This document shows positions 14,557 through 35,053 of a stretch of 64,000 bases of DNA, piece after piece. How positions within the stretch are numbered: the first letter of the stretch is position 1; every line of letters starts with the position of its first letter. The DNA is taken from positions 145,887 through 209,886 of the forward strand of contig JAHFIQ010000001.1 in assembly GCA_023246355.1 (NCBI GenBank). The letters are read 5' to 3'. The notes under the pieces are model-generated. The model was not told the DNA's origin. It made no database searches and was given only the letters and a program-made list of their open reading frames with translations. Source of the stretch: Candidatus Uhrbacteria bacterium. GTDB lineage: Bacteria; Patescibacteriota; Patescibacteriia; UBA9934; GWF2-40-263. The translations under genes and the position numbers were made by a program.

Positions 14557-14558
14557 CT

Positions 14559-16255: not shown

Positions 16256-19098
16256 AAATTCACATCCTTCATCCTCTTCGCGATGAACCTTGGGGTGGTG
16301 GAAACCAATTCCTTAAGGCGCTTAAAGCCGAGTGGACACGGCAAGGTGTTTTGAGCCTCACGGCTGAGGAGGCAGATGTGATTCTCATCAACAGTTATCC
16401 GTTTGGTGAGGAACACCTCTTTGATACCTTGTGGCGGATCAAAAAAATGCACCCAGAAAAAATCGTGGTCTACCGATTGGACGGCCCCATTTCTTTTATT
16501 CGACAAAATGATACAGAGGTTGATCGCATCATCCGTACGTGGAATCATCTCATTGCTGATGGAATCATTTTTCAGTCCTCTTGGTGTGAAGAAAAAAATA
16601 GAGAGACGTTTCAAATTTCCTCTGCCTATCAGTCCGTCATCCACAATGCTCCGGATCCAACGATCTTCTATCCAAGTCAAAAGAACCATCTACCCAGCCA
16701 ACGCATCAAACTGATCGCGACAAGCTGGTCCGCCAACCTGCGCAAGGGATTTGATCTCTATACCTATCTCGACCAGAACCTCGACTTCTCTCGGTATGAA
16801 ATGACGTTCGTTGGTAATTCCCCGGTCAAATTTACTCACATCAAAATGATCGAACCCCTTTGCTCACAGGATCTGGCCTCTCTTTTAAGAACACAGGATC
16901 TCTTCATCACCGCATCAAAATCTGATCCTTGCTCGAACTCTCTTATTGAAGCTCTTTCCTGCGGACTCCCAGCCGTAGCCATCAATGATGGTGGACACCC
17001 AGAACTGATCCGACATGGCGGAGAACTTTTCAAGGATACTCAAGACGTCCTGGAAAAAATTGATCGCGTTGCCAATGCCTATGCTTCCTACCGAGCACAA
17101 CTTCCCGTGTTTGATATTTCCACAGTGGCACACCGCTACTTCGACTTCTGCGAAAATCTCTGGCTGGAAACACAAAAAAAGCGATACACCCCTAAACAGA
17201 CTCGTCCTGTCGGCTTGATCAAACTCAAAGGGCAAATCCTTACGTGGACCATAAAAAAGAACCTTGGAGCGATTCGAAAAAAAACGCATTCTTTTCTTCG
17301 CTTCTCGCCTATGCCCCAGCAACGTCTTCCACATCTCATTCGGGTGATCTCTACGGGTTTCCGCGACTATCGAAAGGCGCTCATCATTCTCACGCTTCTG
17401 GGCTTCCTCGGAAGTCTGTTCGAAATTATCGGTATCAATGCTCTCATTCCTCTCCTGAGCTTTGTCCTCAAAGAAACATCGAATGAGATGAATCTCATTA
17501 CGGAGACGACCCAGCGGGTCTTTTCATTCTTCCACGTCAGTTTTGGCATCCAAGCGCTTCTCATTTTTATTTCCCTGCTCTTCATTTCTAAAGCGGCTGT
17601 CCTCCTTTTCTTTCAATACGTGCACATTCACGTCATTACGGATTATGAAAGCCAAGAGCGAAGCAGGTTGCTAAAAAAAATGCTCACGGCTGAGTGGTCC
17701 TTTCTCTCCACGCGAAAAATGGGATACCTAGACCAGGTCATCACACAGGATATTACCTGCGCCACCTACGTACTCAGAGATGTAGGTCGACTTATCCTCA
17801 TCCTCACCAACCTTCTCATCTATACAATCGTTGCCCTCACGATTTCACCAACGATCACCCTGATGACCCTCGTAACTGGAACCCTGTTCTTTTTCGGCTT
17901 TAAACCCTTGTTTAAAAAAACATCCAACACAGCACGAGCGTTTACCAACGACAGCAAACGTGTCTCGCATTTTATCAATCAAATTCTCCTTGGATTTAAA
18001 TCCATCAAAACCCAAGCCACGCTGTCTTTGGTTGTCAGTCAGGGCGAACAGCTATTCAGTCTTCTGAAAAAATCCCGTGTGAACCTCTACCTGTACTCGG
18101 GACTTGGCGGCATTATCGGTGAACCCATGATCATGATCTTTCTGCTACTCATGTTTGCTGTCTCTTACTCCTTACCGAACTTCAACTTTGGTGTTTTCAC
18201 CGTCACGCTCTATCTGATGCATAAAATGTTCAACTACGTACAAAGTGCCCAAGGAAAATTCCAAACCATCAGCGAATACCTTCCACATCTGGAAAGTAGC
18301 ATTCAACATCTTGCCGATGCACAGCAACATCAAGAACAGAAGGAGGGAACCCAACCCTTTACATTTCAGCACACCCTTGAATTTCAAGGTGTTGGATTCA
18401 AATACCAGGATCATCAGGACGTCCTAACGAACATTCAATTCAGAATACACAAGGGAGAAATGATTGGCCTCATTGGACCTTCAGGTTCAGGGAAAACAAC
18501 GATTATTGATCTGCTGTTGCGTCTCCTCGAACCCACGACTGGTTCAATTCTGATGGATGACAAACCTCTCAAAACGATGGCGTTAGACGCCTGGAGAAAA
18601 AACATCGGGTACGTCCCTCAAGATCTTTTTTTGTTAAACGAGTCCATTAAGGAAAACATTCGTTTTTTTGATGAAAGGATCACGGATCAGGACATACAAA
18701 ATGCCGCGACTGCTTCCCATCTTGACGAGTTTCTTAAGAACGAGCCCAATGGACTTGAGACACAGGTAGGTGAACGTGGCATCCACCTATCGGTAGGACA
18801 GCGACAACGCATCGTTCTTGCAAGAGCCCTTGTGAGAAAACCAGAAATTCTCATCCTTGATGAAGCCACCAGTGCTCTTGATCACGCGTCCGAAGAAGCC
18901 GTACAACGCACCCTGAAAAAACTCAAGGGACACATGACGATCATTCTCATTGCTCATCGACCATCAACCCTGCTGGATGTCGACCGCCTTGTGACCATCG
19001 CTCATGGCGTGACGACTGAATGTGGTACTCCAACGGATCTGCTCAATAACCCGTCCTCCTATTTTTCTCAGATGCACCATCCTCAACGGGCATCGTGA
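16252..19098 (+). CDS. Fusion protein: N-terminal GT-B glycosyltransferase domain + complete ABC exporter half-transporter (6-TM MsbA-like TMD + NBD)
   Basis: aa 1-330 are GT-like (SKSDPCSNSLIEALSCGLPAVAINDGGHPELI). aa 350-650 hold hydrophobic ABC_membrane helices. The NBD has Walker A GPSGSGKTT, the signature LSVGQRQR, Walker B ILILDEATSALD and the H-loop IAHR. The start has an ATGA overlap with the upstream stop. Confidence 0.75.
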   Translation: MKIHILHPLRDEPWGGGNQFLKALKAEWTRQGVLSLTAEEADVILINSYPFGEEHLFDTLWRIKKMHPEKIVVYRLDGPISFIRQNDTEVDRIIRTWNHLIADGIIFQSSWCEEKNRETFQISSAYQSVIHNAPDPTIFYPSQKNHLPSQRIKLIATSWSANLRKGFDLYTYLDQNLDFSRYEMTFVGNSPVKFTHIKMIEPLCSQDLASLLRTQDLFITASKSDPCSNSLIEALSCGLPAVAINDGGHPELIRHGGELFKDTQDVLEKIDRVANAYASYRAQLPVFDISTVAHRYFDFCENLWLETQKKRYTPKQTRPVGLIKLKGQILTWTIKKNLGAIRKKTHSFLRFSPMPQQRLPHLIRVISTGFRDYRKALIILTLLGFLGSLFEIIGINALIPLLSFVLKETSNEMNLITETTQRVFSFFHVSFGIQALLIFISLLFISKAAVLLFFQYVHIHVITDYESQERSRLLKKMLTAEWSFLSTRKMGYLDQVITQDITCATYVLRDVGRLILILTNLLIYTIVALTISPTITLMTLVTGTLFFFGFKPLFKKTSNTARAFTNDSKRVSHFINQILLGFKSIKTQATLSLVVSQGEQLFSLLKKSRVNLYLYSGLGGIIGEPMIMIFLLLMFAVSYSLPNFNFGVFTVTLYLMHKMFNYVQSAQGKFQTISEYLPHLESSIQHLADAQQHQEQKEGTQPFTFQHTLEFQGVGFKYQDHQDVLTNIQFRIHKGEMIGLIGPSGSGKTTIIDLLLRLLEPTTGSILMDDKPLKTMALDAWRKNIGYVPQDLFLLNESIKENIRFFDERITDQDIQNAATASHLDEFLKNEPNGLETQVGERGIHLSVGQRQRIVLARALVRKPEILILDEATSALDHASEEAVQRTLKKLKGHMTIILIAHRPSTLLDVDRLVTIAHGVTTECGTPTDLLNNPSSYFSQMHHPQRAS

Positions 19099-20237
19099 AC
19101 TCCCCTATGGTCTTGCTCTATTTATTCGCAAACGCAAAAGCCAGACAACAACCAACCAGTGGCAAGACTCCTTCTTCACAACGATTTTCCTTCTACGGGC
19201 TGGACGCGTTTTCACTGTCTAGCGAACATACGGTCTTAGACACACTCAACGACGAAGCTGCCTTGGAAACACACAGACGTGGAAAAATCATCGACGCCCT
19301 CTGCAATGGGATCCTGCATTACGTGGGTGGATCAGGTGGATCTTGGTACAAGCTCTGGCGCATGCGTAAGGCTATGAGCCAGTCTGATACGGTTGTTGCT
19401 ACCGCAGATCGGGTGGGAATACCTCTTGTTCTGCTTTCCTATTTTCATCTCATCCCCAAACGTCGAATAGTGTATGTGAGTATTGGATTACCAGAAAGAC
19501 TGCAAACCCTTAAACCTTTTTTTCGGCGTCTGTATCTCAACGCATTCCACCATGTGACCGATGAGGTCATCTGCTACGGCCACAAAGAACATCTGTTACT
19601 TCAACACGATCTTGGCCTACAAAAACCCAGGGTTTGGTTTGTGCCCTTTGGCGTGGACACGAACACCCTCATACCACAGGACCCCTCCACAGGACAGACG
19701 ATTGTCTGTGTTGGCGCTGATCCTCATAGGGACTTCCATTCACTCTTCATCCTGGCTGAGCGGCATCCGATGACCCCTTTCTTGGTCATCACCTCACGTG
19801 CACATCAACGGAAATGGAAGAGACTCAAGGTATCGATTCCAACCAACGTCACGCTCCAGTACGATCTTCCCTTTGTTGAAACGATGGAGGCAGTATCCCA
19901 ATCCAAATTTGTTGTACTCCCGGTGTTTGAAAATTCGTATTCCGGAGCAACCACAACCCTCTTGCAAGCGATGGCATTAGGAAAAGCCGTCATTGTGACC
20001 AAGACGGGTGCCATCGCAGATGGCTATCATCTTGCACACGAACAGAATGTTCTTTTCGTGCCACCAGAAGATATCGAGGCTTTAGATGTTGCCTTTACAC
20101 GCCTCTCAACGGACCCAGCATTGAGAATGGCACTGGGGGCAGCTGCCAGAGAAACCGTTGCGCGACATCTGAACTGGCAGAGGTATTCACATCAGATGTA
20201 TTCGATCATTACAGGGCATCAAACGTCTCCTCATTGA
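19095..20237 (+). CDS. Glycosyltransferase (GT-B, GT4/GT1-like)
   Basis: The C-terminal region reads VLPVFENSYSGATTTLLQAMALGKAVIVTKTGAIADGY. The GTG start overlaps the upstream TGA. ATG at 19107 is an alternative start. Confidence 0.55.
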   Translation: MNSPMVLLYLFANAKARQQPTSGKTPSSQRFSFYGLDAFSLSSEHTVLDTLNDEAALETHRRGKIIDALCNGILHYVGGSGGSWYKLWRMRKAMSQSDTVVATADRVGIPLVLLSYFHLIPKRRIVYVSIGLPERLQTLKPFFRRLYLNAFHHVTDEVICYGHKEHLLLQHDLGLQKPRVWFVPFGVDTNTLIPQDPSTGQTIVCVGADPHRDFHSLFILAERHPMTPFLVITSRAHQRKWKRLKVSIPTNVTLQYDLPFVETMEAVSQSKFVVLPVFENSYSGATTTLLQAMALGKAVIVTKTGAIADGYHLAHEQNVLFVPPEDIEALDVAFTRLSTDPALRMALGAAARETVARHLNWQRYSHQMYSIITGHQTSPH

Positions 20238-20284: not shown

Positions 20285-21358
20285 ATGCAACACATCGCTC
20301 TTATTGGCTGCGGAAGAGTCGCCTCACATATCGCACAATTTTTGGAACAGGGAATGCGCGGCGTTCAGGTCATACACGTTTGTGACATCGTCACCGAACG
20401 AGCAGATGCCATGGCCTTGCGGCTTGGGACTCACGCCGTCTATGACATGAGTGAGGTGTTACAAAACCCCGACGTGACGACGGTTTTGATTCTCACTGAA
20501 TCAGGAAATCATGGAACCCACGCACGTGAAGCCTTGCTTGCTGGCAAACATGTGATCGTTGAAAAGCCGATCGGATTAATTCCTGATGAGGTCATCGAAA
20601 ACGAACGCATCGCGAGAGAGAAAAACCTCCTGTATGCCGCCATCAAACAAAACAGATTTAATCCCGCGATCGAGCAATTAAAAAAAACATCTGACGCAGG
20701 ACGCTTTGGAAAACTGGTCCTTGGAAGTATTCGACTGATCTGGTGCAGACCGCAAGCCTACTACGAGGATGGCTGGCACGGCACCTGGGCCATGGACGGA
20801 GGGGTTATCAGCCAACAAGCCATCCATCATATCGATGCTCTCCAATGGATCTGTGGTCCAATCACCGAGGTTGTGAGCGCACAAACAAATGCGTTGAACC
20901 GCCTGGAAGCTGAGGACACAACCGTGGCTCTTGTTCGATTCCAAAACGGAGGGCTTGGAACGATTGAGGCAACAACCGCCGCACGGCCGACGGATAAAGA
21001 AGCATCGATCACGATCGTTGGAGAAAAAGGCATGGCACAGATTGGTGGCGTGGCACTAAACAACATCACCCAATGGGAATTTACAGAACCACACCCAGAG
21101 GATCAAAACACACAGAAGCACTACTCACAAGAAGTTCCAAATGGATATGGTCTTTCACACGGACCCCTCCTCCAGGAAATCTTCGACCGTCTCAACCGGG
21201 GAAACATCATCCCCCCCATTACGGCATTGGATGCGCTATCGAGCGTACGGATCGTTCACGCCCTGTACAAAAGCGCCGAGGAACATCGCTGGGTAACGGT
21301 GGATGAACAGGTCCGTTCTGCGCGTTTGGGAAATCCATCCACGCGAGCAACTGTATGA
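20285..21358 (+). CDS. Gfo/Idh/MocA family NAD(P)-dependent sugar oxidoreductase
   Basis: The start is trimmed to MQHIALIGCGRVASHIA (dinucleotide-binding N-terminus). LLAGKHVIVEKPIGLIPDE is the EKP motif. The C-terminal alpha/beta dimerisation domain is present. Confidence 0.75.
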   Translation: MQHIALIGCGRVASHIAQFLEQGMRGVQVIHVCDIVTERADAMALRLGTHAVYDMSEVLQNPDVTTVLILTESGNHGTHAREALLAGKHVIVEKPIGLIPDEVIENERIAREKNLLYAAIKQNRFNPAIEQLKKTSDAGRFGKLVLGSIRLIWCRPQAYYEDGWHGTWAMDGGVISQQAIHHIDALQWICGPITEVVSAQTNALNRLEAEDTTVALVRFQNGGLGTIEATTAARPTDKEASITIVGEKGMAQIGGVALNNITQWEFTEPHPEDQNTQKHYSQEVPNGYGLSHGPLLQEIFDRLNRGNIIPPITALDALSSVRIVHALYKSAEEHRWVTVDEQVRSARLGNPSTRATV

Positions 21359-22269
21359 CCAGTCCTCTGCTCAACGCTGTCGACAATGGCGCCGCTTTGA
21401 ATCTGGGTGATTCCCTGTATTACGCCGCCATCCTCGGAACACACCCTTCCAAAGGAGCTCGCTCCCCGGTTTTATGGAATGCGGCTTTCAAAAACCTTGG
21501 AATCGACGCGCAGATGCATCCCATGGATGTCACGGCTGAAAACCTTCCGTTCGTTATAGACGAACTGAAAAAAGACCCTCGATTCATCGGAGGCGCCGTC
21601 ACCACCCCCCACAAACAAACCATCAGTTCACTGTTGGACGCACTCGAGGAAGAGGCCGAACTCATCGGCGCAGTAAATGCTCTCTATCGCAAGGATGGAA
21701 AACTCGTGGGAGCAAATACTGATGGTGCAGCAGCCCTGAAAAGTTTAGAAGCACACGCGGGTTCCATCCATGGAAAGACCGTTCTTCTCCTGGGTCTGGG
21801 AGGAGCCGGACGAGCCGTTGGGATCTATCTTGCCCGAGCGATCGGCAAAGAAGGCAAGCTGCTGCTCAGCAACCGAACGATCGACGTCGCCCAAAACGTC
21901 CAAGAAAAAACAGCATCATTTTGTCCCACAACGGTGATTCCTTGGCCTGTGGATGCGATAACCCTCTCACAATCTGATATCCTCATAAACGCCACAACCA
22001 TTGGCTTTGCAGGATCGGGGCAAGAGGATTTCTCTCCCATTGATGCCACTCTGATGCTGTCGCTTAGGCCAACCTCATTCGTCTTTGACCTCATCTATCA
22101 ACCCTTGGAGAGTCCTTTGCTGCGGCTTGCGCGGACGCGAGGGGCACAAACAATCAACGGCAAAGAGATGAACCTCGAGCAAGCCATCATTGCCTTTGAA
22201 AAAGCTGCTCGTGGAGTGGGGCAACAAGTTCCCGAAGGTTCGGTAAAGCCTCTCATGCAATCCGTTTAA
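21355..22269 (+). CDS. Shikimate/quinate 5-dehydrogenase (AroE) family reductase
   Basis: GTHPSKGARSPVLWNAAF matches G-x-P-x-x-HS-x-SP-x-x-HN. VTTPHK carries the catalytic Lys. NTDG carries the catalytic Asp. LGLGGAGRAVGIYL is a Rossmann motif. NRT and INATTIG are present. The start has an ATGA overlap. Confidence 0.7.
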   Translation: MTSPLLNAVDNGAALNLGDSLYYAAILGTHPSKGARSPVLWNAAFKNLGIDAQMHPMDVTAENLPFVIDELKKDPRFIGGAVTTPHKQTISSLLDALEEEAELIGAVNALYRKDGKLVGANTDGAAALKSLEAHAGSIHGKTVLLLGLGGAGRAVGIYLARAIGKEGKLLLSNRTIDVAQNVQEKTASFCPTTVIPWPVDAITLSQSDILINATTIGFAGSGQEDFSPIDATLMLSLRPTSFVFDLIYQPLESPLLRLARTRGAQTINGKEMNLEQAIIAFEKAARGVGQQVPEGSVKPLMQSV

Positions 22270-22278
22270 CATTTTTCT

Positions 22279-23205
22279 ATGAAAGACATTAGTGAAACCG
22301 ATCTCAAAAATAACCTTCCACTCTCCTGCAAACCTGGAATGAAGATTCCTGTGCACGTAGGCAACACCCAGGTGGGTGGCGAGGGACTCACGATCATGGC
22401 AGGACCGTGCACGGTGGAGAGTCGTGAACAAGTTTTCTCAATCGCGAAGGCTGTGAAAAATGCCGGAGCGACGATTCTTCGTGGGGGCGTCTTCAAACCT
22501 CTCACCTTCCCTTACGGAGACCCACTCTTACTCGCCGACGCTGGGACAGACGGAGAAAACCTTCCTCGCACACACATTCTTTCCAAACAAGAAACCCTTG
22601 AACGGGCAGAGCGCCGATTCAGGTATTTTGCTGAGGCAGGAAAATCCGTTGGACTCCCAATTGTTTCAGAAGCAATTGTGGCGGATGCGATTGAGATGAT
22701 GGAGCCATATGTGGACATGTTCCAAGTCGGCTATCGATCCATGTTCAACATGGACTTGCTCTATCGCTTATGCAAAACCGAAAAGCCCGTGCTCTTGAAA
22801 CGTCATGCGGGAGAATCGATCCGAAGCCTTTTGGGAGTGGTCGAACATTTCTATGCACGTGGAAAAACAAACCTCGTGGTCTGTGAGCGTGGCGTTGCTG
22901 TCCCACACACGCACAATAGTGCTTCTCGCGCCATCCTGGATATCCAAGCGATTGTCGCTCTGAATGAATACGCCCCTACCATTCCGGTGATCGCTGATCC
23001 AAGCCACTCCACGTTTAAACGGTCGTACGTTCAAGCGATGAGCCGCGCGGCGATAGCCGCTGGAGCCGACGGTCTTCTGATCGATGTCCATCCTGATCCA
23101 GAACACGCTTGGGTCGATCCGCTCCAAGCGCTCAATTTTGATCAGTTTGGCGAACTCATGAAGGATGTACGATCCATCGCTCTCACGGTCGGCAGAACTC
23201 TATGA
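22279..23205 (+). CDS. DAHP synthase type I-beta / KDO8P synthase family PEP-aldolase with a divergent phosphate-binding motif
   Basis: [50 protein letters not shown] and [40 protein letters not shown] align closely with type I-beta DAHPS / KdsA. The canonical KPRTSPYSFQG motif is [10 protein letters not shown] here. Confidence 0.7.
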
Positions 23206-24611
23206 CCCAACCGCTCGTCTCCATCATCATACGCACAAAAAACGAGGAGGCATGGATCGGCCGCACCCTTCGTGCTGTTGAAACTCAAACATACCGAAAT
23301 TACGAAGTCATTATTGTGGACACAGGATCTACAGATCGCACGCTTGAAATCGCAAAAAAATTTCCCTGCCAGATTGTGTGCGACGAAACAGTTCCCTATC
23401 GTCCGGGTCGTGTGCTCAACAGAGGCATCCACGCATCGAACGGTTCGTTGTTGGTTCTCTTATCTGCTCATGCCGTCCCAGTGGATGAGACATGGCTTGC
23501 ACAACTGGTCTCCACCATTTTGGAAGACGAACAAACCGCTGGGGTCTATGGGCGTCAACTCCCGCTTCCCGAATCCTCTCCGTTTGATAAGCGTGATCTG
23601 TTGATCACCTTTGGACCAGAAAAAAGGGTTCAGCGAAAAGACAACTTTTTCCATAACGCAAATGCGATTATTCGTCGCGACCTGTGGGAACGCATACCGT
23701 TTGACGAGACGGCAACCAATATTGAAGACCGTCTCTGGACCAAGGCGGTTCAAGAACATGGATTTTCTGTAACCTACGAACCCGAAGCACGCGTCTATCA
23801 CCATCATGGCATCCATCAATACGGAAACGTCAGCCGTTGTGAAACCACCGTGACTATTTTAGAACAGTTAGAAACGGTTGGTGTCTCGGCACAGGAGATG
23901 GATCATCAACTTGCATACGAGGGCGCACAACAGATGCTCACCATCTTGCCTATGAGCCATGAGGACACGGAACGGCTGTTGGAAATCCCCTATGGATCTG
24001 ATCAACCATTTCTTAACCATGTCCTGAGGGAAATCGCGCGATCCTCACTGATCCACCGGGTCGTTGTGGCAACCGCACATCCAATCGCCCTTGAACTGGC
24101 GAAGACGTTTGGATTTGAAACGTTTTTTTATCTGACACCCATGTTCAATGGTCCAGAAGCCTCTTTAGAAGAGGTCCTTCAAGCCACACTCACGTTTGTT
24201 AAAGAAACATCTGGGTTCACCCCTTCGCATGTCCTTTTTTTGAAAGGAACCCACGTCTTTCGCAGCGCGGAACTCATGAATGCGCTTATCAAAAAAGCGT
24301 TCATCGAAAAGGAAGACTCTGTCTTTGTGGCAAGAAAAGAATACCGCGCCGTGTGGGCTTTAGAGCAAGGGACGTTCGTGCGCAAGGACAGTGGCTTTAT
24401 CAAACACGAACAAAAAGAGCCACTCTGGATGGGATACATGGGTCTAGGATGCATCACCAAAACAGCGTTCATCCAAGCTGGAAATCGATTAGGAGAATCG
24501 GTAGCCGTTGTCCCCATGAATAACGCCTTGATGCTCCTGGACATCCAGAATGCTACAGAGCGGGAAATGGCAAAACATCTGTTCGTAAAACGCCACGACA
24601 TGCATCTATGA
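23202..24611 (+). CDS. GT2 (GT-A) glycosyltransferase fused to a C-terminal degenerate NeuA/SpsF-like cytidylyltransferase domain
   Basis: The N-terminus [42 protein letters not shown] is a GT2 signature. The C-terminal half ([20 protein letters not shown]...[24 protein letters not shown]) has the same layout as the next gene. ATGA overlap. Confidence 0.6.
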
Positions 24612-25309
24612 ACCCGCCAAACATTGTCGCCATTGTCCCTGCCAGAGGTGGATCAAAAGGGCTTCCAAAAAAAAATCTGCAACTTCTCAATGGACATCCG
24701 TTGATCACCTATGCGATTGCTGCGGCAAAACGCTGTGAACGAATCGCGCGCGTAATCGTCGCAACAGACGATCAAACAATTGCTGATGTTGCCGTACGCT
24801 CTGGAGCAGAGGTTCCCTTCTTGTTGCCACAGGATCTCGTCCAAGACCATACACGTTTGGAAGACACGTTTGCCTATGTCACGCAGTGGCTGCTCAAACA
24901 AGATCCTACGATTGAGTACATCTGCTTTGTTGATCCCACGCGACCTGTTCGACCACCTCATTTCTTGAATGATGCCCTGGGAGCTCTTCTTGAGAGTGGC
25001 CAGGATTCCGTCATCAGCGGAGTACACGAACATAAGTCGGTCTGGAAAAAAACAGATGCTCGGCTTGAACGGCTGGATAGTGGATTTACTGTTCGGCAAC
25101 TCAAGCCTGACCAGATCTACGTGTGCTATAGCGGCCTAATCACATGCACGAAAGCCTCGTTCATGGCAAAGGGAGAACGTCTGGGTCCCACTGTTCTTAT
25201 CTGGGAATTCGATGACCACAACATGACCGTCGACGTTCACACCAAGGACGACCTGCGTTTAGCCGAGCTGATTCTCAACGAGTGGCGTGACCGCTATGTG
25301 ATACCGTAG
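24608..25309 (+). CDS. CMP-sugar cytidylyltransferase (acylneuraminate cytidylyltransferase NeuA/PseF family)
   Basis: VAIVPARGGSKGLPKKNLQLLNGHPLITYAIAAAKRCERIARVIVATDD is the CTP_transf_3 P-loop. ATGA overlap. Confidence 0.75.
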   Translation: MNPPNIVAIVPARGGSKGLPKKNLQLLNGHPLITYAIAAAKRCERIARVIVATDDQTIADVAVRSGAEVPFLLPQDLVQDHTRLEDTFAYVTQWLLKQDPTIEYICFVDPTRPVRPPHFLNDALGALLESGQDSVISGVHEHKSVWKKTDARLERLDSGFTVRQLKPDQIYVCYSGLITCTKASFMAKGERLGPTVLIWEFDDHNMTVDVHTKDDLRLAELILNEWRDRYVIP

Positions 25310-25313
25310 ATGT

Positions 25314-26840
25314 ATGACCTCATGGCCTACTTCATTTAACGCCCAAGCTCGACACATAAACGACTCTCAGCAACGGGAGTTCGCTGACCACTGGTACCTC
25401 CATCAAGAAAAAGATCTCACGATCCAAGATGGAATTTCTTATGGCGGCCTTCTTCGTTTGCCTGTTTTTTTGTTGATGACTGAAACATTTCAAAAAAAGA
25501 CGCGCCTGGACTCGATATGGAAACTCGTAAAAACGATTGTTGCAATGCTCTGGATGTTTGCCTCTCTTCTTGTGCGCCCCCCAAAAAAAAATCCCCAAAA
25601 CCAACATTCTGGTCGTGAATATGCCTTCCTCTATGCCAAGCACGCGCCTACAGGAGCTATCGCAAAAACGCTCGATCCCATCATCCAAGCACTCAATACG
25701 CGTGGCGAATCCGTCCGTCTATTTACCTTTGACGAGAAGCAGCGCGATGCTCTACAAACCCAGTACCCCACGCTGCCTTGCGTGAATCTATCGGAAGGAT
25801 CCGTTTCCTTCAGTCATGTCTGGTCGCTTTTCAGGATGCTTGTGCGAACCACCTGTATCCTTCTCTTCTCAGCCAAACGCGCGAATCTATTCGATGCCCT
25901 TGGCCAATGGTACTATCATGCTCCAAGATTTCTGCAGATAGATCAGTCCCTGGAAACAGAGCTGCACAAAGACACAATCATCGTTTCAGCGACCGAGATG
26001 CATCCCCATGAACGACTCGTATTTACGCGTGCCAAGACACGAACCATTTCTACCATCCTCATTCAACATGGCGTTACGGACCAGACAATAAAAAATCAGG
26101 TAGTGAACACTCCCTCGATCGCATCACACGTGTTCGTTTGGGGGGAACATGCAAAACGCTATTTTCTCAAACATGGCGTGCCAGAACAACGTGTGACTGT
26201 CACAGGTTCGCCAGCACTCACCTCCCTATTTCACTCTCTCAAACGACCTTCTCGCGAAACAATACTCACACCATTTGCTCTCCCGAATCGTGCATTCATT
26301 CTCTTTTCCGGACAACATTTCGATCGTGAAAAAAATACGGCTCTGTGCACATTGATGCTCGAGGCGTACAAACGCTTCTCCTCAATGACACAAGAACCGC
26401 CCGCACTGCTTATCACTCCACACCCAGCAAAAAGTCCTTACTCCACGGTCTCTTTTTACACGAACCTCGTGGAAAAACATGACCTCAATCTGGAAGGGAA
26501 CGTCTTTGTGAGATCTGCAAAAAACCAAATTGGTGAACTGCTTGAAATGGCGGATCTTCTGATCACCTCTTCCTCGACCCTCCATGTGGAAGCGGCGATC
26601 AAAGGAATCCCTGTGATCCTCCTCAATATCGATGGAGTTCCCGACATGGATATGGTTACGGACAAAGCCGCACGAGCTGCCCATACGGAAGAAGAACTCA
26701 CAGATGCTCTACGATCGCTTCAAAATCCAATCGTCCGGGAATCTCTCCAGACGCATGTGCCTCGCTTTCTTGAGTCCTATATCTCCTACCCTGATAATGC
26801 TGTCACACGAGTCACCGAAAAACTTTTGACCATCCGTTAA
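25314..26840 (+). CDS. GT-B glycosyltransferase with HP and SS motifs (sialyltransferase / KpsC-KpsS capsule Kdo-transferase-like)
   Basis: The C-terminal domain reads FILFSGQHF...LLITPHPAKSP...IGELLEMADLLITSSSTLHVEAAIKGIPVILL. The HP motif and SS(S)T motif are arranged as in CMP-ulosonic-acid-dependent GT-B transferases. The N-terminal ~150 aa are unassigned. Confidence 0.45.
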   Translation: MTSWPTSFNAQARHINDSQQREFADHWYLHQEKDLTIQDGISYGGLLRLPVFLLMTETFQKKTRLDSIWKLVKTIVAMLWMFASLLVRPPKKNPQNQHSGREYAFLYAKHAPTGAIAKTLDPIIQALNTRGESVRLFTFDEKQRDALQTQYPTLPCVNLSEGSVSFSHVWSLFRMLVRTTCILLFSAKRANLFDALGQWYYHAPRFLQIDQSLETELHKDTIIVSATEMHPHERLVFTRAKTRTISTILIQHGVTDQTIKNQVVNTPSIASHVFVWGEHAKRYFLKHGVPEQRVTVTGSPALTSLFHSLKRPSRETILTPFALPNRAFILFSGQHFDREKNTALCTLMLEAYKRFSSMTQEPPALLITPHPAKSPYSTVSFYTNLVEKHDLNLEGNVFVRSAKNQIGELLEMADLLITSSSTLHVEAAIKGIPVILLNIDGVPDMDMVTDKAARAAHTEEELTDALRSLQNPIVRESLQTHVPRFLESYISYPDNAVTRVTEKLLTIR

Positions 26841-26844
26841 CCGT

Positions 26845-27852
26845 ATGACCTGTCCTGTCTGCCACAGTCCAACCGCACGACGATGGTGTTCTTGCCATGA
26901 TCACTTGATGAAAAAACCTCTTCCGGGTCGAACGTTTTATCGTTGTCTTTCCTGCGACTTGGTCTACCTATCACCACAGACGTCGACCACAGACTACGAG
27001 GAACACTACGGTGAAGGGTATATTTCTCACAAGCACGTGCCTTCAAAACCCCCTCGTGAATCGTATGCTTCTCAGAAGCTCCTCCAACTCCGAGGGCAGA
27101 TCTGGCAAGAGCTCTTTCAGGTACCCATGGGTCTGGTATCCTCGGGCCTATTCACTCGATGGATGCTCCTGCTTATACGAAGATCTGTTTTCTTTCGCTC
27201 TACACCACTCAAATGCGATGGGAACGGAAAGAAGCTGTTAGATGTCGGAAGCGGAGCCGGACAGTTCTTGACGGCGCAGTCACAACGAGGCTGGAACGTC
27301 CATGGCTTGGAACCTGCACCAAGAATGGTTGAGGAGAGCAGGGCGCGCGGACTGGATGTTCGCCAGGGATTTTCCATCGCACCGTATTTTCCTACACCAA
27401 CCTTTCATTTCATTGTCCTCAATCAAGTGTTTGAACATCTCACAGACCCACAGGTCATGTTAAAAGAAGGACACGATGCTCTCAGAGAAAACGGAATCCT
27501 TTACATGAACATGCCAAACGCACGCAGTCTTCCCGCATGGCTCTTTCGTGGCTTTTGGTTTAATCTAGATGCACCCCGACATAATCTCCTCTTCTCCCCT
27601 TCGGTCATCAGACGCCTACTCGTACAAGAGAACTTTGAAGTGCTCATGCTCTACACGTCCTCAAGTACAAAGGGGTTCACGGGCTCCATAGAGTACCTGC
27701 TCCGTGATGTATTTCACCTTCCACTCCCCGAAGGATCTGTGAGAAAAAATAAATGGTTCAACCGCTGTTTAGTACCATTCGTTCGCCTTATTGATTGGTT
27801 TGGCGTGGGAGACAATCTCCATGTCATTGCTCGAAAAAAATCCATCCTATGA
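26845..27852 (+). CDS. SAM-dependent methyltransferase with N-terminal zinc-ribbon (sugar C/O-methyltransferase-like)
   Basis: CPVCHS...CLSCDL is a Zn ribbon. LLDVGSGAGQFL is SAM motif I. FIVLNQVFEHLTDP is present. Confidence 0.65.
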   Translation: MTCPVCHSPTARRWCSCHDHLMKKPLPGRTFYRCLSCDLVYLSPQTSTTDYEEHYGEGYISHKHVPSKPPRESYASQKLLQLRGQIWQELFQVPMGLVSSGLFTRWMLLLIRRSVFFRSTPLKCDGNGKKLLDVGSGAGQFLTAQSQRGWNVHGLEPAPRMVEESRARGLDVRQGFSIAPYFPTPTFHFIVLNQVFEHLTDPQVMLKEGHDALRENGILYMNMPNARSLPAWLFRGFWFNLDAPRHNLLFSPSVIRRLLVQENFEVLMLYTSSSTKGFTGSIEYLLRDVFHLPLPEGSVRKNKWFNRCLVPFVRLIDWFGVGDNLHVIARKKSIL

Positions 27853-28826
27853 AGGAAGCTCTTTGTCTTCTGTGCAACCAAGACAACGCATCGGTACTGC
27901 TCATCAATAAAGGGGATCCTTTCCGGACAAGCATCAACGGACGGGAAACACGCTATGTGGTCTGCAACCTGTGTGGTTTTGTGTATCAGAATCCAAAACT
28001 AGATGAACAGGAAATTGAAAACCTGTACACAAAAGAGACCTACGATAAAAAAGACACACGTATCACGGAAGCCTATCAACAGAAAAAAGAAGAATACGCA
28101 AAACAGAGCTTTGACTGGATCGCCAAACACAGACAGGTTTCAACACAGACGAACGAATCTAAAATTCTCGATATCGGATGCAATACAGGCGCCCTCTTAT
28201 CCCTGTTCAAACAGCAAGGTTGGCAATGTTATGGGGTTGAACCTTCACAAAACATGTCGACCATAGCGAAAGAACGCTACGGCCTGACACAGGTCTCAAC
28301 TCACCTTTTTAAAGAAGGACTGTTCGCTCCAGCCTCGTTCTCCTTTGTCTCCCTTCTCCACACGCTTGAACACCTTGAAAACCCAGCGATCATGCTCAAG
28401 GAAATAGCGCAGGTCTTGAATCCCGATGGCACGGTGTACATCGAGGTGCCGGATATCTACCAACCAAAAAGTTGCTTCTATACATCCTACTTTGCCGCAC
28501 CGCACCTCTACGTTTTTTCCCCTCATTCTCTAGAGCGACTTCTCGCCCAACACGGTTTTCAGACCATCGCCCGTGGTGCCGTTCCTCGTGGAATCTGCGT
28601 GCTTGCAAAGAAAGCGGAACCGCGCGACCTTCCCCTCACAGACGATTCCACGAACATCATCTTTCAGATCACACAGTATAAAAAGATTCATGACCGCCAC
28701 GCGTTTCTCTATCGATACATCGCCCAGAGCCTTCCTGCGCGTATCCTCATCAAACTCCGCCTTCCGATTATCAGCTCTGCGCTCTCCCGATGTACAGAAC
28801 GGGTCCGTGTCAATAAAATCATCTAA
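27849..28826 (+). CDS. SAM-dependent methyltransferase with N-terminal zinc-ribbon (paralog-type of previous)
   Basis: The start is trimmed to MKEALCLLCNQ, giving an ATGA overlap. Cys pairs CLLC...CNLC are present. ILDIGCNTGALLSLF is SAM motif I. Confidence 0.65.
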   Translation: MKEALCLLCNQDNASVLLINKGDPFRTSINGRETRYVVCNLCGFVYQNPKLDEQEIENLYTKETYDKKDTRITEAYQQKKEEYAKQSFDWIAKHRQVSTQTNESKILDIGCNTGALLSLFKQQGWQCYGVEPSQNMSTIAKERYGLTQVSTHLFKEGLFAPASFSFVSLLHTLEHLENPAIMLKEIAQVLNPDGTVYIEVPDIYQPKSCFYTSYFAAPHLYVFSPHSLERLLAQHGFQTIARGAVPRGICVLAKKAEPRDLPLTDDSTNIIFQITQYKKIHDRHAFLYRYIAQSLPARILIKLRLPIISSALSRCTERVRVNKII

Positions 28827-28835
28827 ATCATTTCC

Positions 28836-29924
28836 ATGCCCTCCGAGTGGTTGAACAATCTTCGCACACACCTCTTGCTCTTTCTTGAACAACAAAGAGA
28901 TGAAACCATCCCTGGATATTTTCGTTATGCGTTCTCTGGTGATGTCTTTCAAAATAAAAATCGATCAAACCTCGCCGGAAGTATCTTTGCGCTCAAGCTG
29001 TACCACATGCTCAACATGCACCAAGCGGCACCCACGCATTCGGCCATTGAACGCATTCTGAGCTTCCAAAAGTCAGATGGAACGATCTACGATCCGTTTA
29101 TCTATCGAAAAAGTTTTATAAGAAATCTTCTTTCAAATCTTTCAAAAGCCAAGACACACAACCTTAATAACGATGAATACATTCGAGCGGAAACACGACA
29201 GGCCTACTCTGCCCTTCTTCTGTATGACATCATCCCTGATCATCTATACGCCAACATCCCAACACAACCTGATGCAGTCAAAAAATACATTGACACGCTC
29301 GACTGGAAGCGACCATGGGGAGCTGGAAGCCACGTAAGTCACCTCTTGTTTTTTTTGTCCCTCTTGAGAAAGGCAAAACGGCTAGATGAGACAACGTACA
29401 ACGATGCTCGCGAAATGACTCTGAGCTCTCTCTCTTCTCTTCAGCACAACTCTGATGGCACTTGGTATACCGGCCTTCCATCGCCCAGACAAAAAGTGAA
29501 TGGTGCCATGAAAGTGATCACCGGCCTGCTCATCGACAATGTCCCCTTCACGTATCCTGATCGCTTGATTGATCTGTGTCTGCACACTGACACGCAACAG
29601 ACATCCGATGCGTGTGATCAAATAAATCAAGTACTCGTATTGCGCTACGCAGACGAACAGTGCCAGCACAGTCATCGTCGGGACGAGATATTCACATTCT
29701 GCGAAAAAATCCTCTGGCAATGGCAAGACTATTATCATCAAAACGAAGGAGGTTTTTCCTTTCACAAAAATCGTGCGAATGATCGCTATTACGGTGCAAA
29801 CGTAAGCCGTGGACTGAACGAACCAGACATCCATGGGACGGTTCTGTTTGTCTGGGGACTGAGCCTGATGGCGAAACTGATTCCGCTCCCAGAATTGGAC
29901 TGGCTACAAGAAATGAAAAGTTGA
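28836..29924 (+). CDS. Hypothetical protein with repeated Q/S-x-DG-[TW]-[WFY] motifs (possible alpha/alpha-toroid fold)
   Basis: The motifs are QKSDGTIYDP, WGAGSHVSHLLFFLSLL, HNSDGTWYTG and NEGGFSFH. The spacing resembles prenyltransferase, terpene-cyclase or AGE-type (alpha/alpha)6 repeats. The family is not assigned. Confidence 0.35.
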   Translation: MPSEWLNNLRTHLLLFLEQQRDETIPGYFRYAFSGDVFQNKNRSNLAGSIFALKLYHMLNMHQAAPTHSAIERILSFQKSDGTIYDPFIYRKSFIRNLLSNLSKAKTHNLNNDEYIRAETRQAYSALLLYDIIPDHLYANIPTQPDAVKKYIDTLDWKRPWGAGSHVSHLLFFLSLLRKAKRLDETTYNDAREMTLSSLSSLQHNSDGTWYTGLPSPRQKVNGAMKVITGLLIDNVPFTYPDRLIDLCLHTDTQQTSDACDQINQVLVLRYADEQCQHSHRRDEIFTFCEKILWQWQDYYHQNEGGFSFHKNRANDRYYGANVSRGLNEPDIHGTVLFVWGLSLMAKLIPLPELDWLQEMKS

Positions 29925-30757
29925 TGTCTATGACTGTTTCCATTCTCCTTTCCGTCTTCAACGGCGAACGTTTCCTGCGACAAGCTGTCGACAGTCTTCT
30001 GACACAGACCTACCGAGATTTCGAATTGTGGATCGTGAATGACGCATCAACAGATCAAACACCACAAATTTTGGATCAACTCTCCCGTGAAGATTCTCGA
30101 GTCCGTATCATCACAAACGAGAGGAACCTCGGTCTCACAAAATCACTCAACCTCGCCCTTGCCCAAGCTCAAGGCTCCTCCATCGCTCGTATGGATGCCG
30201 ACGATATCGCTCTCCCTGAGCGGCTTGAAAAACAAGTCGCCTATCTTGATGCCCATCCTGATATTGACGTGGTCGGAACCGCCTATCAATTTATCAACGC
30301 ACAGAATCGCGTGATCGGTGAGCGTCATCCGTCGACAGACGATGAACAGATTCGCCGTAAACTCATTATTCACAATCCATTCCTCCACAGCTCAGTCCTG
30401 ATCCGAAGAGCACTCCTTGACCAAGTCCATGGCTATGACGAACGTTTCCGCCGCGCACAAGACTACGACTTATGGATGCGACTGGAGCCTCTGACGAAAC
30501 TCGCCAACCTCCCGAATATTCTCATGCAAAAACGTTTCACAACTGACATGATCTCGTATGCATCTGAACGTGAACAAATCAAAACAGCTGTGACCATCCG
30601 TGTAGCCGCCATCCGTCGAGGTCAGTATCCTTGGTGGTGCGCCATCTATCTGATTAAACCGTTCCTCGCCACCATCCTCCCGCTTCCCTTGGTCCGATTC
30701 TTGCGGACCCACGTCTTTGGACAAAAAATCTATGCTCACCCCTTCGTACAAAAATAG
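29921..30757 (+). CDS. GT2 (GT-A) glycosyltransferase
   Basis: VSILLSVFNGERFLRQAVDSLLTQTYRDFELWIVNDASTDQT and RMDADD match the DxD region. ATGA overlap. Confidence 0.75.
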   Translation: MMSMTVSILLSVFNGERFLRQAVDSLLTQTYRDFELWIVNDASTDQTPQILDQLSREDSRVRIITNERNLGLTKSLNLALAQAQGSSIARMDADDIALPERLEKQVAYLDAHPDIDVVGTAYQFINAQNRVIGERHPSTDDEQIRRKLIIHNPFLHSSVLIRRALLDQVHGYDERFRRAQDYDLWMRLEPLTKLANLPNILMQKRFTTDMISYASEREQIKTAVTIRVAAIRRGQYPWWCAIYLIKPFLATILPLPLVRFLRTHVFGQKIYAHPFVQK

Positions 30758-30792
30758 TGAGCTGAGGACTTGTGTAGCAAAATTTTTCTCAC

Positions 30793-31899
30793 ATGAAAAT
30801 CTTTTTCTTCATCACCAAATCTGAAACCGGTGGCGCGCAGACACATGTCGCGCAGCTCACGAAGTTTTTTCTGTCTCGTGGGGATGAAGTCTGTGTGATG
30901 AGCGCTCCTGGTGGCTGGCTTGAAACGGAAACTCAGCGACAGGGAGCGCCCTTCTTTCCCAATCCTTTTCTCTCTAATGCTCCCAACCCTCTGCGTCTTC
31001 TCAAAGCTGCTTCTGCCCTCACTGATGCGGTCCGTGAATTCCAACCTGATCTCGTCGCCTGTCACAGCACCATGGCCGGCCTCTTGGGTCGTCTAACCAT
31101 CAAAAATCGCATCCCTACGGTCTTCACAGCTCATGGCTGGGGTTTCCTGCCTGGCGCTCCCCGTACACGACGGGTCTTCTTACCGATCCTGGAGCGGATC
31201 GCGGCGAAATTCTGCTCCAAAATTATTTGTGTCTCACAAAATGATCTGAGGCTGGCACGAGCTCATCGCATTGCTCCTGAAAAAAAATTAGTCCAGATCT
31301 ACAACGGTATTGAGATTCCAAATCCCCGTCTTGACCACTTTCGCCGTCTCGACCACCTGGTCCACCTCTTTTTTGTCGGCCGCCTTGCTCCACCCAAAGA
31401 TCCGTTCATGCTCATCCATGCTGTCTCAACGCTCCCCCACGATCTCCAAAACCGAATTACCGTGACCATCATCGGCGAAGGCCCACAGAGGACAGCTCTT
31501 CAACATCTTATCCGTGAGACACACCTGGAGCCATACGTGAATCTTTCTGGAACGCTCGCGCGAGACGAAATCTTGAAACGGCTCCAGACACAAGCTGACA
31601 TCTTCGTGCTGCTCTCCCATTTCGAAGGCTTTCCGTATTCGATCCTGGAGGCCATGGCCTGCGGCGTTCCTGTGATCGCTTCTCATGTAGGCGGTATTAA
31701 AGAAGCCATAACGCCAGACGTTGGCTTGCTCATCTCGCCGTCAGATCCTGAGTCTCTGATGCAAGCTCTGACACGCCTCATTCAAAATCCAGAAGAACGT
31801 CAACACATGGGTGTGCGCGCACGCGAAAAAGCGCAAAACGAATTTTCCGTCGAACGCATGTGTGAAAAAACGCTCGAGGCCTATCAACGTGTCATCTGA
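30793..31899 (+). CDS. GT4 family glycosyltransferase
   Basis: N-terminus ITKSETGGAQTHVAQL. C-terminus FEGFPYSILEAMACGVPVIASHVGGIKEAI. Confidence 0.75.
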   Translation: MKIFFFITKSETGGAQTHVAQLTKFFLSRGDEVCVMSAPGGWLETETQRQGAPFFPNPFLSNAPNPLRLLKAASALTDAVREFQPDLVACHSTMAGLLGRLTIKNRIPTVFTAHGWGFLPGAPRTRRVFLPILERIAAKFCSKIICVSQNDLRLARAHRIAPEKKLVQIYNGIEIPNPRLDHFRRLDHLVHLFFVGRLAPPKDPFMLIHAVSTLPHDLQNRITVTIIGEGPQRTALQHLIRETHLEPYVNLSGTLARDEILKRLQTQADIFVLLSHFEGFPYSILEAMACGVPVIASHVGGIKEAITPDVGLLISPSDPESLMQALTRLIQNPEERQHMGVRAREKAQNEFSVERMCEKTLEAYQRVI

Positions 31900-34976: not shown

Positions 34977-35053
34977 TGGTGGGGGTGGATGGACTCGAAC
35001 CATCGACCGTCGAGGTATAAGCTCGATGCTCTAACCAACTGAGCTACACCCCC
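34977..35053 (-). tRNA. tRNA-Ile (anticodon UAU)
   Basis: Minus-strand sequence GGGGGTGTAGCTCAGTTGGTTAGAGCATCGAGCTTATACCTCGACGGTCGATGGTTCGAGTCCATCCACCCCCACCA. It has a 7-bp acceptor stem, a GCTC/GAGC D stem, an anticodon stem TCGAG/CTCGA with loop CTTATAC, a T arm GATGG-TTCGAGT-CCATC, and an encoded CCA. Confidence 0.8.

Follow-up and report, generated by a model that had tools for sequence, protein, structure and literature searches.

Six consecutive genes, at positions 20285 to 26840 of a 64,000-nucleotide stretch of DNA from a Candidatus Uhrbacteria bacterium (contig JAHFIQ010000001.1, positions 145,887 to 209,886; hereafter, the window), encode a putative pathway to a CMP-activated sugar. 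On balance, we favor the reading that this block directs the synthesis and activation, and probably also the transfer, of an acidic sugar of the 3-deoxy-2-ulosonic acid type that is made by neither a KdsA nor a NeuB/PseI/LegI synthase. To our knowledge, the bacterial 2-ulosonic acids established so far all come from synthases of the KdsA or NeuB type. If the reading is correct, the block represents a third lineage of ulosonic acid synthases, recruited from 3-deoxy-D-arabino-heptulosonate 7-phosphate (DAHP) synthase and equipped with its own tailoring enzymes and transferase. A preliminary description of this DNA, made from the sequence alone, had proposed that the genes lead, outside the shikimate pathway, to a CMP-linked 3-deoxy-ulosonic acid that may decorate a surface glycan. 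The proposal is strengthened by the synteny of the genes across phyla, an invariant arginine-to-leucine exchange in the aldolase and fusions of the two redox genes. What the analysis shows directly is the families, motifs and folds of the proteins and the synteny, fusions and distribution of their genes; every substrate, the order of the steps and the sugar itself are inferred.

All six open reading frames (ORFs) lie on the forward strand, and the gene calls on the public contig agree with their coordinates. The block begins with the ATG at 20285 (orthologs of gene 1 begin with MxRxGxLGCGRV), and the genes are tightly packed: genes 1 and 2, genes 3 and 4, and genes 4 and 5 overlap by ATGA, and the remaining two junctions are gaps of 9 and 4 nt, which bears out the earlier view of six consecutive, translationally coupled genes. 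Profile searches of the six genes upheld five of the six family assignments made previously.

The aldolase as an apparent offshoot of type I-beta DAHP synthase

Gene 3 (22279..23205, forward strand, 308 aa) encodes a phosphoenolpyruvate (PEP)-dependent aldolase that we propose to be the ulosonic acid synthase. The protein matches PF00793 (DAHP_synth_1) with 136 bits and falls below both models for type I-beta DAHP synthase (NF006421, 269 bits versus a cut-off of 335; TIGR01361, 233 versus 267.75), far below those for 3-deoxy-D-manno-octulosonate 8-phosphate (KDO8P) synthase (NF003543, 85 versus 242; TIGR01362, 79 versus 314) and below the gathering threshold of the NeuB family PF03102 (20.2 versus 22.1). 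Its closest solved relatives are the type I-beta DAHP synthases of Pyrococcus furiosus and Aeropyrum pernix, and it scores 188 bits against the P. furiosus enzyme compared with 38-56 bits against KDO8P synthases. Thus, the PEP aldolase of the type I-beta DAHP synthase/KdsA family that had been described earlier is confirmed and lies on the DAHP synthase I-beta side, not on that of KdsA. Alignment with the P. furiosus enzyme showed that gene 3 keeps the metal ligands C44, H243, D/E269 and D280 together with the PEP-binding Arg/Lys.

To place the protein in its family, we used 81 genomic loci with homologs of gene 3, taken from one-genome-per-species contigs (single loci are labeled L0xx below). 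All 81 aldolases contain FKPLTFPY at the position where P. furiosus DAHP synthase has FKPRTSPY, so that KPRT is changed to KPLT (Leu75 in gene 3). They further share a three-residue PHTH insertion, DPSH(S/A)TF and VDPL. The Arg and Thr of the KPRT/S motif of DAHP synthases, which use erythrose 4-phosphate (E4P), and the KANRS motif of KDO8P synthases, which use arabinose 5-phosphate (A5P), hold the phosphate of the aldose. Given that all members have Leu in place of the Arg of KPRT and that the genes come without a phosphatase, the aldose used by gene 3 would not be E4P and probably carries no phosphate. The best 120 database relatives of gene 3 are all ∼305-310 aa long and at least 61% identical, and they come from many phyla.

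The phylogeny of the aldolase, a step suggested in the preliminary description, was taken as far as a neighbor-joining tree with the P. furiosus DAHP synthase as comparison. The KPLT family formed two subfamilies that group on one long stem apart from the P. furiosus enzyme. Subfamily 1, which includes the window protein, has an extra insert of 23-29 residues directly after the motif and carries GYRHMFNM; subfamily 2 is without the insert and includes proteins of SAR11, Azospirillum, Thalassobaculum, Acidobacteriota, Planctomycetota and Dehalococcoidia. Judged by sequence, the aldolase is a monophyletic offshoot of type I-beta DAHP synthase.

A conserved cassette around the aldolase

ORFs were called in all 81 loci and searched with the window proteins, and partner genes were counted in the 55 loci that extend for 5 kb or more on each side of the aldolase. 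Across the 81 loci, which come from more than 15 phyla, the aldolase is accompanied by three kinds of partner. A gene for a reductase resembling shikimate dehydrogenase (SDH-like) was found in 47 of the 55 loci, a CMP-synthetase in 49, and a family 2 glycosyltransferase (GT2), with or without its cytidylyltransferase paralog (CT2), in 45. A close ortholog of the WlbA-like dehydrogenase of the Gfo/Idh/MocA family was present in 28/55, and many of the other loci contain more distant Gfo/Idh/MocA genes. The conserved unit is the aldolase together with the SDH-like reductase (plus a Gfo-type dehydrogenase), the CMP-synthetase and the GT2 with its cytidylyltransferase paralog; in Desulfovibrio mangrovi, for example, the order is Gfo-type dehydrogenase, SDH-like reductase, aldolase, CMP-synthetase and GT2-CT fusion. 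The arrangement is far beyond chance: a screen for the same synteny found these genes grouped with the aldolase in dozens of unrelated genomes. Carriers include SAR11, bacteria of the candidate phyla radiation (CPR), Omnitrophota, Desulfobacterota, Acidobacteriota and Planctomycetota, and among them are the cultured D. mangrovi, Desulfatibacillum aliphaticivorans, Thalassobaculum fulvum and Azospirillum halopraeferens. We found no description of the cassette in the searchable literature, which covers few subscription journals, so an earlier description is possible.

Other genes accompany the cassette less regularly. A GT30 gene (Kdo-transferase N-domain) lies directly downstream of the CMP-synthetase in three loci (L018, 10393-11718; L042, 14978-16324; and L038). 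NanM-type sugar O-methyltransferases are recurrent neighbors, as are AsnB-like amidotransferases, KdgD/NanA-like proteins of the dihydrodipicolinate synthase (DHDPS) family, enolase-superfamily proteins and radical SAM enzymes; single or paired loci also have a TagF-like protein and two bona fide Epimerase_2 genes. The recurrent neighbor families comprise no KdsC-like phosphatase. They likewise hold no gene resembling dehydroquinate synthase or 2-epi-5-epi-valiolone synthase, and a carbasugar or aminoshikimate-type pathway was rejected on this ground. In one Omnitrophota locus (L012, 6713-9392), a B12-binding radical SAM enzyme, a hexapeptide acyltransferase and a PAPS-reductase-family protein lie between the CMP-synthetase and the GT2-CT gene, which hints at further tailoring of the sugar, for example by C-methylation, acylation or sulfur/adenylyl chemistry. 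One locus labeled as uncultured Gammaproteobacteria (L003, CAZELN010000020.1) has an operon that is collinear with the Uhrbacteria loci and shows 86% identity in the aldolase; the label is probably a binning or taxonomy error.

The redox pair and its replacement

Gene 1 (20285..21358, forward strand, 357 aa) matches PF01408, PF02894 and PF22725, and its best phmmer matches in the PDB are 3q2k/3q2i at 225 bits. Predicted structures, which served in fold searches only, gave a concordant result: the AlphaFold2 (AF2) model of gene 1, with a predicted local distance difference test score (pLDDT) of 90, matches WlbA with bound UDP-N-acetylglucosaminuronic acid (UDP-GlcNAcA) at a TM-score of ∼0.9 and an E-value of 1e-35, compared with 1e-27 for the next family. 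By sequence as well as by fold, the top relatives are WlbA of Bordetella pertussis and of Chromobacterium violaceum, crystallized with NADH and UDP-GlcNAcA according to the PDB titles, to which gene 1 is 31-34% identical. Several orthologs have been named UDP-N-acetyl-2-amino-2-deoxyglucuronate dehydrogenase by JGI. The label of a Gfo/Idh/MocA sugar oxidoreductase given earlier was therefore correct as to family and too generic: gene 1 encodes an NAD(P) oxidoreductase resembling, specifically, the WlbA/WbpB 3-dehydrogenases of UDP-uronic acid sugars. D. mangrovi has, adjoining the cassette, a separate canonical WbpB-like paralog beside an aminotransferase and an acetyltransferase (a WbpB-DegT-Hexapep trio), and the cassette gene therefore represents a sister subfamily.

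Gene 2 (21355..22269, forward strand, 304 aa) encodes a reductase of the shikimate/quinate dehydrogenase family that belongs to a distinct subfamily. It matches PF08501 (Shikimate_dh_N) with 68 bits and stays below the cut-off of the aroE model TIGR00507 (175 bits versus 200.2). As previously described, the catalytic Lys (PHK) and Asp (NTDG) are intact, and the Tyr and Gln of shikimate dehydrogenases are kept too. In shikimate dehydrogenases, shikimate is bound by the SxS motif, which contacts the carboxylate, and by Asn59 and Thr87 (E. coli numbering). An alignment of 45 gene 2 orthologs revealed that SxS is replaced by A-R-S and PHK by PYK, that the positions of N59 and T87 are not conserved and that a new Arg and a new Trp are invariant. 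The family already holds a sugar ketoreductase, the 5-ketofructose reductase 7cok.

In five loci (L028, L032, L033, L034 and L037), the Gfo-type dehydrogenase and the SDH-like reductase are fused into one protein of ∼735 aa, as confirmed with Pfam for L032 (6907-9111). Because a 3-dehydrogenase of a carboxylated pyranose is thus found beside, or fused to, a ketoreductase of a carboxylated six-membered ring, genes 1 and 2 are most simply read as an epimerase pair that oxidizes and then reduces a carboxylated pyranose.

Nine loci (L009, L012, L013, L015, L018, L020, L023, L026 and L029) are without both genes. In the place of the redox pair, directly upstream of the aldolase, they have a protein of the xylose-isomerase fold that scores 297 bits on the model of the 5-keto-L-gluconate epimerase IolO (cut-off 300) and a cupin that passes the equivalog model of the 5-deoxyglucuronate isomerase IolB (224 bits versus 205). 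The hosts are Omnitrophota, Elusimicrobia and one metagenome-assembled genome (MAG) each of Dehalococcoidaceae and Myxococcia, and their aldolases nest inside subfamily 1 of the neighbor-joining tree. The redox pair and the IolO/IolB-like pair never occur together in one locus. IolO and IolB act on free C6 keto/uronic acids.

The redox pair could be placed at either of two steps, which we do not rank. Acting before the condensation, it would epimerize the uronic acid that becomes the aldose partner of PEP, a placement suggested by the fact that a ketose 3-epimerase and an aldose-ketose isomerase of the IolO/IolB type would reach the same C3-epimerized uronic acid. Acting after the condensation, it would work on the ulosonic acid or its CMP ester, in line with the close analogy between a 4-keto-3-deoxy-2-ulosonate pyranose and 3-dehydroquinate.

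CMP-sugar synthesis and a candidate transferase

Gene 5 (24608..25309, forward strand, 233 aa) encodes a predicted NeuA/PseF-type CMP-ulosonic acid synthetase. It matches PF02348 (CTP_transf_3) with 77.9 bits (cut-off 22.6), and its P-loop PARGGSKGLPKKN, of the type PARxxSxxxPxKN, is intact, as is the canonical P-loop in all its orthologs. The protein scores below all curated models, with 112.6 bits on that of PseF (TIGR03584, cut-off 205.7) and 34-51 bits on those of KdsB (cut-offs 155-281). Its best PDB matches are NeuA enzymes, in agreement with the bona fide NeuA-type CMP-sugar synthetase seen earlier.

Gene 4 (23202..24611, forward strand) combines a GT2 domain (∼residues 1-225; PF00535, 82.8 bits versus a cut-off of 23.3) with a C-terminal cytidylyltransferase paralog without P-loop, CT2 (∼residues 240-469; CTP_transf_3, 22.2 bits, and NTP_transf_3, 32 bits over residues 266-383). 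CT2 is homologous to gene 5 over its full length except for the P-loop (BLASTP E-value 3e-17, from residue 31 on), and in all lineages a deletion of ∼9 residues has removed the GSKGxPxKN loop. In the GT2 domain, the DXD motif is replaced by an S-x-H that is invariant in 36 orthologs, and the other motifs of the family are very conserved. At E ≤ 1e-30, the GT2-CT architecture is matched by the representatives of 518 clusters formed at 50% identity, and in subfamily-2 loci the GT2, the synthetase (CT1) and CT2 are three separate genes. The earlier description of a GT2 fused to a degenerate NeuA/SpsF-like domain thus stands as to the fusion and the loss of the P-loop; the degeneration is not a local event, CT2 being a conserved paralog that is a gene of its own in some phyla. 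CT2 is thus an old, conserved and probably non-catalytic partner of the GT2, and the GT2 domain may be the dedicated transferase, to which CT2 would contribute the binding of sugar or CMP-sugar.

Gene 6 is a lineage-specific companion

Gene 6 (25314..26840, forward strand) encodes a protein of the GT-B-type fold, for which two hydrophobic N-terminal helices suggest association with the membrane. It matches the Pfam family Epimerase_2 weakly but above the cut-off (36.9 bits versus 30.6) and stays far from the wecB model TIGR00236 (15.5 bits versus 210); the HxEAG-type motif appears as QHGVT, and its acidic residue is not evident by eye. The closest Foldseek matches of the AF2 model (pLDDT 85.7) are UDP-GlcNAc 2-epimerases and, more generally, UDP/GDP-sugar 2-epimerases. 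An HP (370-371) and an SSST (419-422) motif are invariant in the homologs. There are also weak matches to the BFO_1060 and TIGR04396 surface-carbohydrate families. The BFO_1060 family comprises transferases of pseudaminic (Pse) and legionaminic (Leg) acid from Tannerella, whose role is backed by genetic evidence, and bacterial CMP-sugar transferases of the GT-B fold, which include sialyltransferase families and the nonulosonic acid (NulO) transferases BFO_1060 and Tanf_01245, are characterized by an HP motif and a D/E-D/E-G motif (PMC5420450) in the nucleotide-binding half. The profile search gave no match of gene 6 to sialyltransferase families, and neither profiles nor fold support such an assignment.

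Consistent with the preliminary description, gene 6 has the GT-B fold and the HP and SS motifs. Its identification as a CMP-ulosonic acid transferase is put in question by the Epimerase_2 match and the 2-epimerases among its fold neighbors, and motifs of the HP/SS type are not diagnostic of a CMP-sugar transferase, as 2-epimerases have equivalent HP and Ser-rich/EA motifs. A NeuC/LegG-like NDP-sugar hydrolase/2-epimerase is as likely as a transferase. Only ten homologs, nearly all from CPR bacteria, were found among 5.8 billion proteins, and 7 of the 55 well flanked loci contain one; gene 6 was accordingly rejected as part of the conserved core.

Proposed pathway and alternative explanations

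In the pathway that we propose, gene 3 would act as a metal-dependent aldolase that condenses PEP with an aldose other than E4P, probably one without phosphate. Gene 1 would oxidize a ring hydroxyl and gene 2 reduce the ring ketone, the two forming an epimerase pair whose target, a carboxylated pyranose, may be either a uronic acid from which the aldose derives or the ulosonic acid, free or as CMP ester. Gene 5 would then form the CMP-sugar. The conserved candidate for the transferase is the DXD-less GT2 of gene 4, with CT2 as a module that may bind the sugar or CMP-sugar, and gene 6 would be a lineage-specific extra, either a second transferase or a NeuC/LegG-like hydrolase by which the aldose is released from its nucleotide. 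The sugar would become part of a methylated oligosaccharide that the surrounding family 4 (GT4) and GT2 glycosyltransferases assemble on a lipid carrier; export would fall to a fused ABC transporter and attachment to a Wzy_C-type ligase. All four enzymes for which curated equivalog models exist score below the cut-offs. If the proposal is true, very abundant and mostly uncultured bacteria (SAR11, CPR/Patescibacteria and Omnitrophota) carry a hitherto unrecognized surface sugar. It would also concern the annotation of ∼100 or more genomes in which these genes are labeled 3-deoxy-7-phosphoheptulonate synthase and shikimate dehydrogenase, labels that in reduced genomes wrongly suggest aromatic amino acid biosynthesis. 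The cultured carriers make the hypothesis directly testable.

Several points weigh against this proposal. The searchable literature reports no matching sugar from the cultured carriers. WlbA-like enzymes use UDP-sugars, which the aldolase cannot use, and the step that would free the sugar is missing in most loci, homologs of gene 6 being rare. A UDP-glucose 6-dehydrogenase as constant neighbor, which would favor a UDP-uronic acid precursor, had to be rejected because it was found nearby in only 6 of the 55 loci. The equivalence of the redox pair and the IolO/IolB-like pair is deduced only from their position and mutual exclusion. The phosphate-binding role of the Arg in KPRT and KANRS is taken over from structures of DAHP and KDO8P synthases, and a housekeeping phosphatase could act in trans. 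Finally, enzymes of the GT2 fold normally use NDP-sugars, not CMP-sugars.

The last point belongs to an alternative that we regard as unlikely, in which the cassette serves two lines of sugars: the Gfo-type dehydrogenase and the SDH-like reductase would make a 3-epimer of a UDP-(N-acetyl)hexuronic acid, which the GT2 transfers as an NDP-sugar, and the aldolase and CMP-synthetase would separately make a CMP-ulosonic acid for other transferases (gene 6, GT30-like or TagB-like). This would suit the resemblance of gene 1 to WlbA in complex with UDP-GlcNAcA, the usual donors of GT2 enzymes, the lineage-specific GT-B, GT30 or TagF-like genes beside the CMP-synthetase in several loci and the GalE/TviC-like epimerase that is often adjacent. 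However, the GT2 has lost its DXD and has an invariant S-x-H, and its fusion or adjacency to a cytidylyltransferase paralog ties it to the CMP-sugar branch; moreover, GT2-CT2 is retained where enzymes of free keto acids take the place of the redox pair, and the substrate cleft of the SDH fold is small. It is improbable that non-orthologous enzymes lead here to a sugar already known, be it plain Kdo or 3-deoxy-heptulosonate/Kdn, in parallel to the capsule-specific KpsF/KpsU duplicates of E. coli. The invariant KPLT is neither KPRT (E4P) nor KANRS (A5P), the redox or isomerase pair that is always attached would be superfluous for Kdo synthesis, neither a KdsC-like phosphatase nor a KdsD-like SIS isomerase recurs, and Gram-negative carriers presumably already own KdsA and KdsB; these points stand against the GT30 Kdo-transferase-like neighbors in three loci, the matches of the CMP-synthetase to both KdsB and NeuA/PseF models and the membership of the aldolase in the DAHP/KDO8P synthase superfamily.

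We give very little weight to a small carboxylated molecule outside glycans, quinate-like or a deoxy-aldonic acid, which after cytidylylation would be added as a substituent or which the GT2 would glycosylate in the manner of glucosyl-glycerate solutes. In nearly all cases the cassette is part of a polysaccharide-type cluster that has GT4s, an ABC exporter, Bac_transf and Wzy_C, enzymes of the CTP_transf_3 family are not known for substrates other than 2-ulosonic acids and no dehydroquinate-synthase-like cyclase recurs, although the weak best named matches of the GT2 include glucosyl-3-phosphoglycerate synthase and MftF-type small-molecule glycosyltransferases and many accessory enzymes (IolB, IolO, KdgD-like DHDPS and MR_MLE) come from families of acid-sugar catabolism. 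That genes 2 and 3 are an ordinary AroE and DAHP synthase lying by chance in a glycan operon is close to refuted. Their best profile matches are indeed aroE and type I-beta DAHP synthase, and the catalytic residues of both are intact, but both fall below every equivalog cut-off, KPRT is KPLT in all 81 members, the linkage to CMP-synthetase and GT2 holds across more than 15 phyla, CPR lineages included, and the 64 kb of the window contain no shikimate-pathway genes beyond genes 2 and 3, as had been noted before. Within the pathway that we propose, a more specific and rather doubtful version of the product is a dicarboxylic 3-deoxy-non-2-ulosaric (or related ulosaric) acid: PEP would be condensed with a C3-epimerized hexuronic acid supplied by either the WlbA-like/SDH-like or the IolO/IolB-like pair, and after activation with CMP the product would be transferred by a metal-independent GT2 whose donor-binding module is a dead cytidylyltransferase. 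A search of the accessible literature for "ulosaric" returned only papers on plant rhamnogalacturonan II and on algal 3-deoxy-lyxo-heptulosaric acid (Dha). If this version were true, the sugar class would be one undescribed in bacteria and, given the spread of the cassette, common yet overlooked on environmental cell surfaces.

Relation to known pathways

Compared with the Kdo pathway (KdsD, KdsA, KdsC, KdsB and the GT30 enzyme WaaA), the cassette has a PEP aldolase of the same superfamily, a CTP_transf_3 enzyme making a CMP-ulosonate and an isomerase/epimerase step that prepares the aldose, its IolB/IolO-like variant mirroring the logic of Rpe and KdsD; GT30-like transferases stand beside it in three loci. 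In contrast, its aldolase is on the DAHP synthase I-beta side with KPLT instead of KANRS, and the cassette dispenses with phosphatase and SIS isomerase and adds the dehydrogenase with its reductase as well as a GT2 whose cytidylyltransferase paralog is dead. The NulO pathways (NeuC/NeuB/NeuA and those of Leg and Pse) follow a similar scheme, in which a nucleotide sugar is tailored, freed, condensed with PEP and activated with CTP. The removal of the nucleotide precedes the synthase step in every one of them. Like the cassette's synthetase, which is closest to NeuA/PseF, the fold of gene 6 (closest to NeuC/LegG) and the NanM-type O-methyltransferases nearby recall these pathways, whereas the cassette synthase is not of the NeuB type, the tailoring enzymes are WlbA-like and SDH-like and the core has no trio of 4,6-dehydratase, aminotransferase and acetyltransferase.

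With the type I-beta DAHP synthase and AroE of the shikimate pathway, the cassette enzymes share the folds, the Cys/His/Glu/Asp metal site, the PEP-binding Arg/Lys and the Lys/Asp dyad. They differ in the altered aldose-phosphate motif, the extra loops and scores below the curated cut-offs, and also in their context, with no aroB/D/K/A/C in the window and a constant linkage to CMP-sugar and glycosyltransferase genes. The closest relative of gene 1 in structure and sequence, the UDP-GlcNAcA 3-dehydrogenase WlbA, belongs to UDP-ManNAc3NAcA biosynthesis, but gene 1 is partnered with, and sometimes fused to, an SDH-family reductase and not with an aminotransferase (WbpE), which argues for keto reduction (epimerization) rather than transamination. 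IolO of Thermotoga inositol catabolism and IolB have at- or near-equivalog counterparts directly upstream of the aldolase in nine loci; the context there is biosynthetic, not catabolic, and contains no other iol genes.

Genomic context

The six genes are embedded in a glycan-assembly operon of ∼20 kb, in which the block is surrounded by a GalE/TviC-like epimerase, five GT4s, a second GT2, four S-adenosylmethionine (SAM)-dependent methyltransferases and a fusion of a glycosyltransferase with an ABC exporter. The upstream part (11698..20237, forward strand), annotated with Pfam, NCBIfam and the gene calls on the public contig, consists of the GalE/TviC-like short-chain dehydrogenase/reductase epimerase (11698-12660), a GT4 (12650-13768), two methyltransferases (13765-14556 and 14559-15188), a GT4 (15185-16255), the exporter fusion (16252-19098) and a GT4 (19107-20237), all on the forward strand. 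The fusion is a 948-aa protein made up of a glycosyltransferase domain of the GT1/GT4 type and a complete ABC exporter (ABC_membrane and ABC_tran); 16 other loci have, alongside the cassette, stand-alone PglK/MsbA-type ABC exporters of ∼590 aa. The downstream part (26845..31899, forward strand; Pfam and gene calls) comprises two methyltransferases (26845-27852 and 27849-28826), a 362-aa protein without family assignment (28836-29924), a GT2 (29924-30757) and a GT4 (30793-31899), again all on the forward strand. The 362-aa protein has no match in Pfam, NCBIfam or the PDB. It is soluble and conserved, with orthologs in L002-L007, and its repeated DGTxY/GGF-type motifs recall the alpha/alpha-toroid repeats of prenyltransferase/terpene-cyclase-like proteins.

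Adjoining the operon, Pfam identified a Bac_transf initiating transferase (6319-7629, reverse strand) and two large proteins of the O-antigen ligase/polymerase family Wzy_C (7636-9669, forward strand, and 9666-11807, reverse strand), the latter with C-terminal TPR repeats. Given a CPR host without a classical outer membrane, the Wzy_C proteins may be oligosaccharyltransferases. Two cohesin-domain proteins (2029-3306 and 4263-6011, both on the reverse strand) may be surface or scaffold proteins and hence candidates for bearing the glycan. At 55257-62280, another small glycan locus comprises an initiating transferase (Bac_transf, with a CoA_binding_3 domain) and, after it, three GT4s.

The other genes of the window are housekeeping genes, namely those for UvrA, RNase J, a class I Trp/Tyr-type tRNA synthetase, guanylate kinase, a pseudouridine synthase, RNase P RNA and three tRNAs, and the nearest named relatives of the window proteins are from MAGs of Candidatus Uhrbacteria and Parcubacteria, which marks the DNA as that of a CPR/Patescibacteria genome. 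One of the tRNAs is an uncommon tRNA-Ile with the anticodon TAT (UAU; 34977-35053, reverse strand); in most bacteria, AUA is decoded by a lysidine-modified CAU tRNA. The RNase P RNA (54746-55192, reverse strand) is of the bacterial class A and measures 447 nt compared with 367 positions in the model, which indicates insertions.

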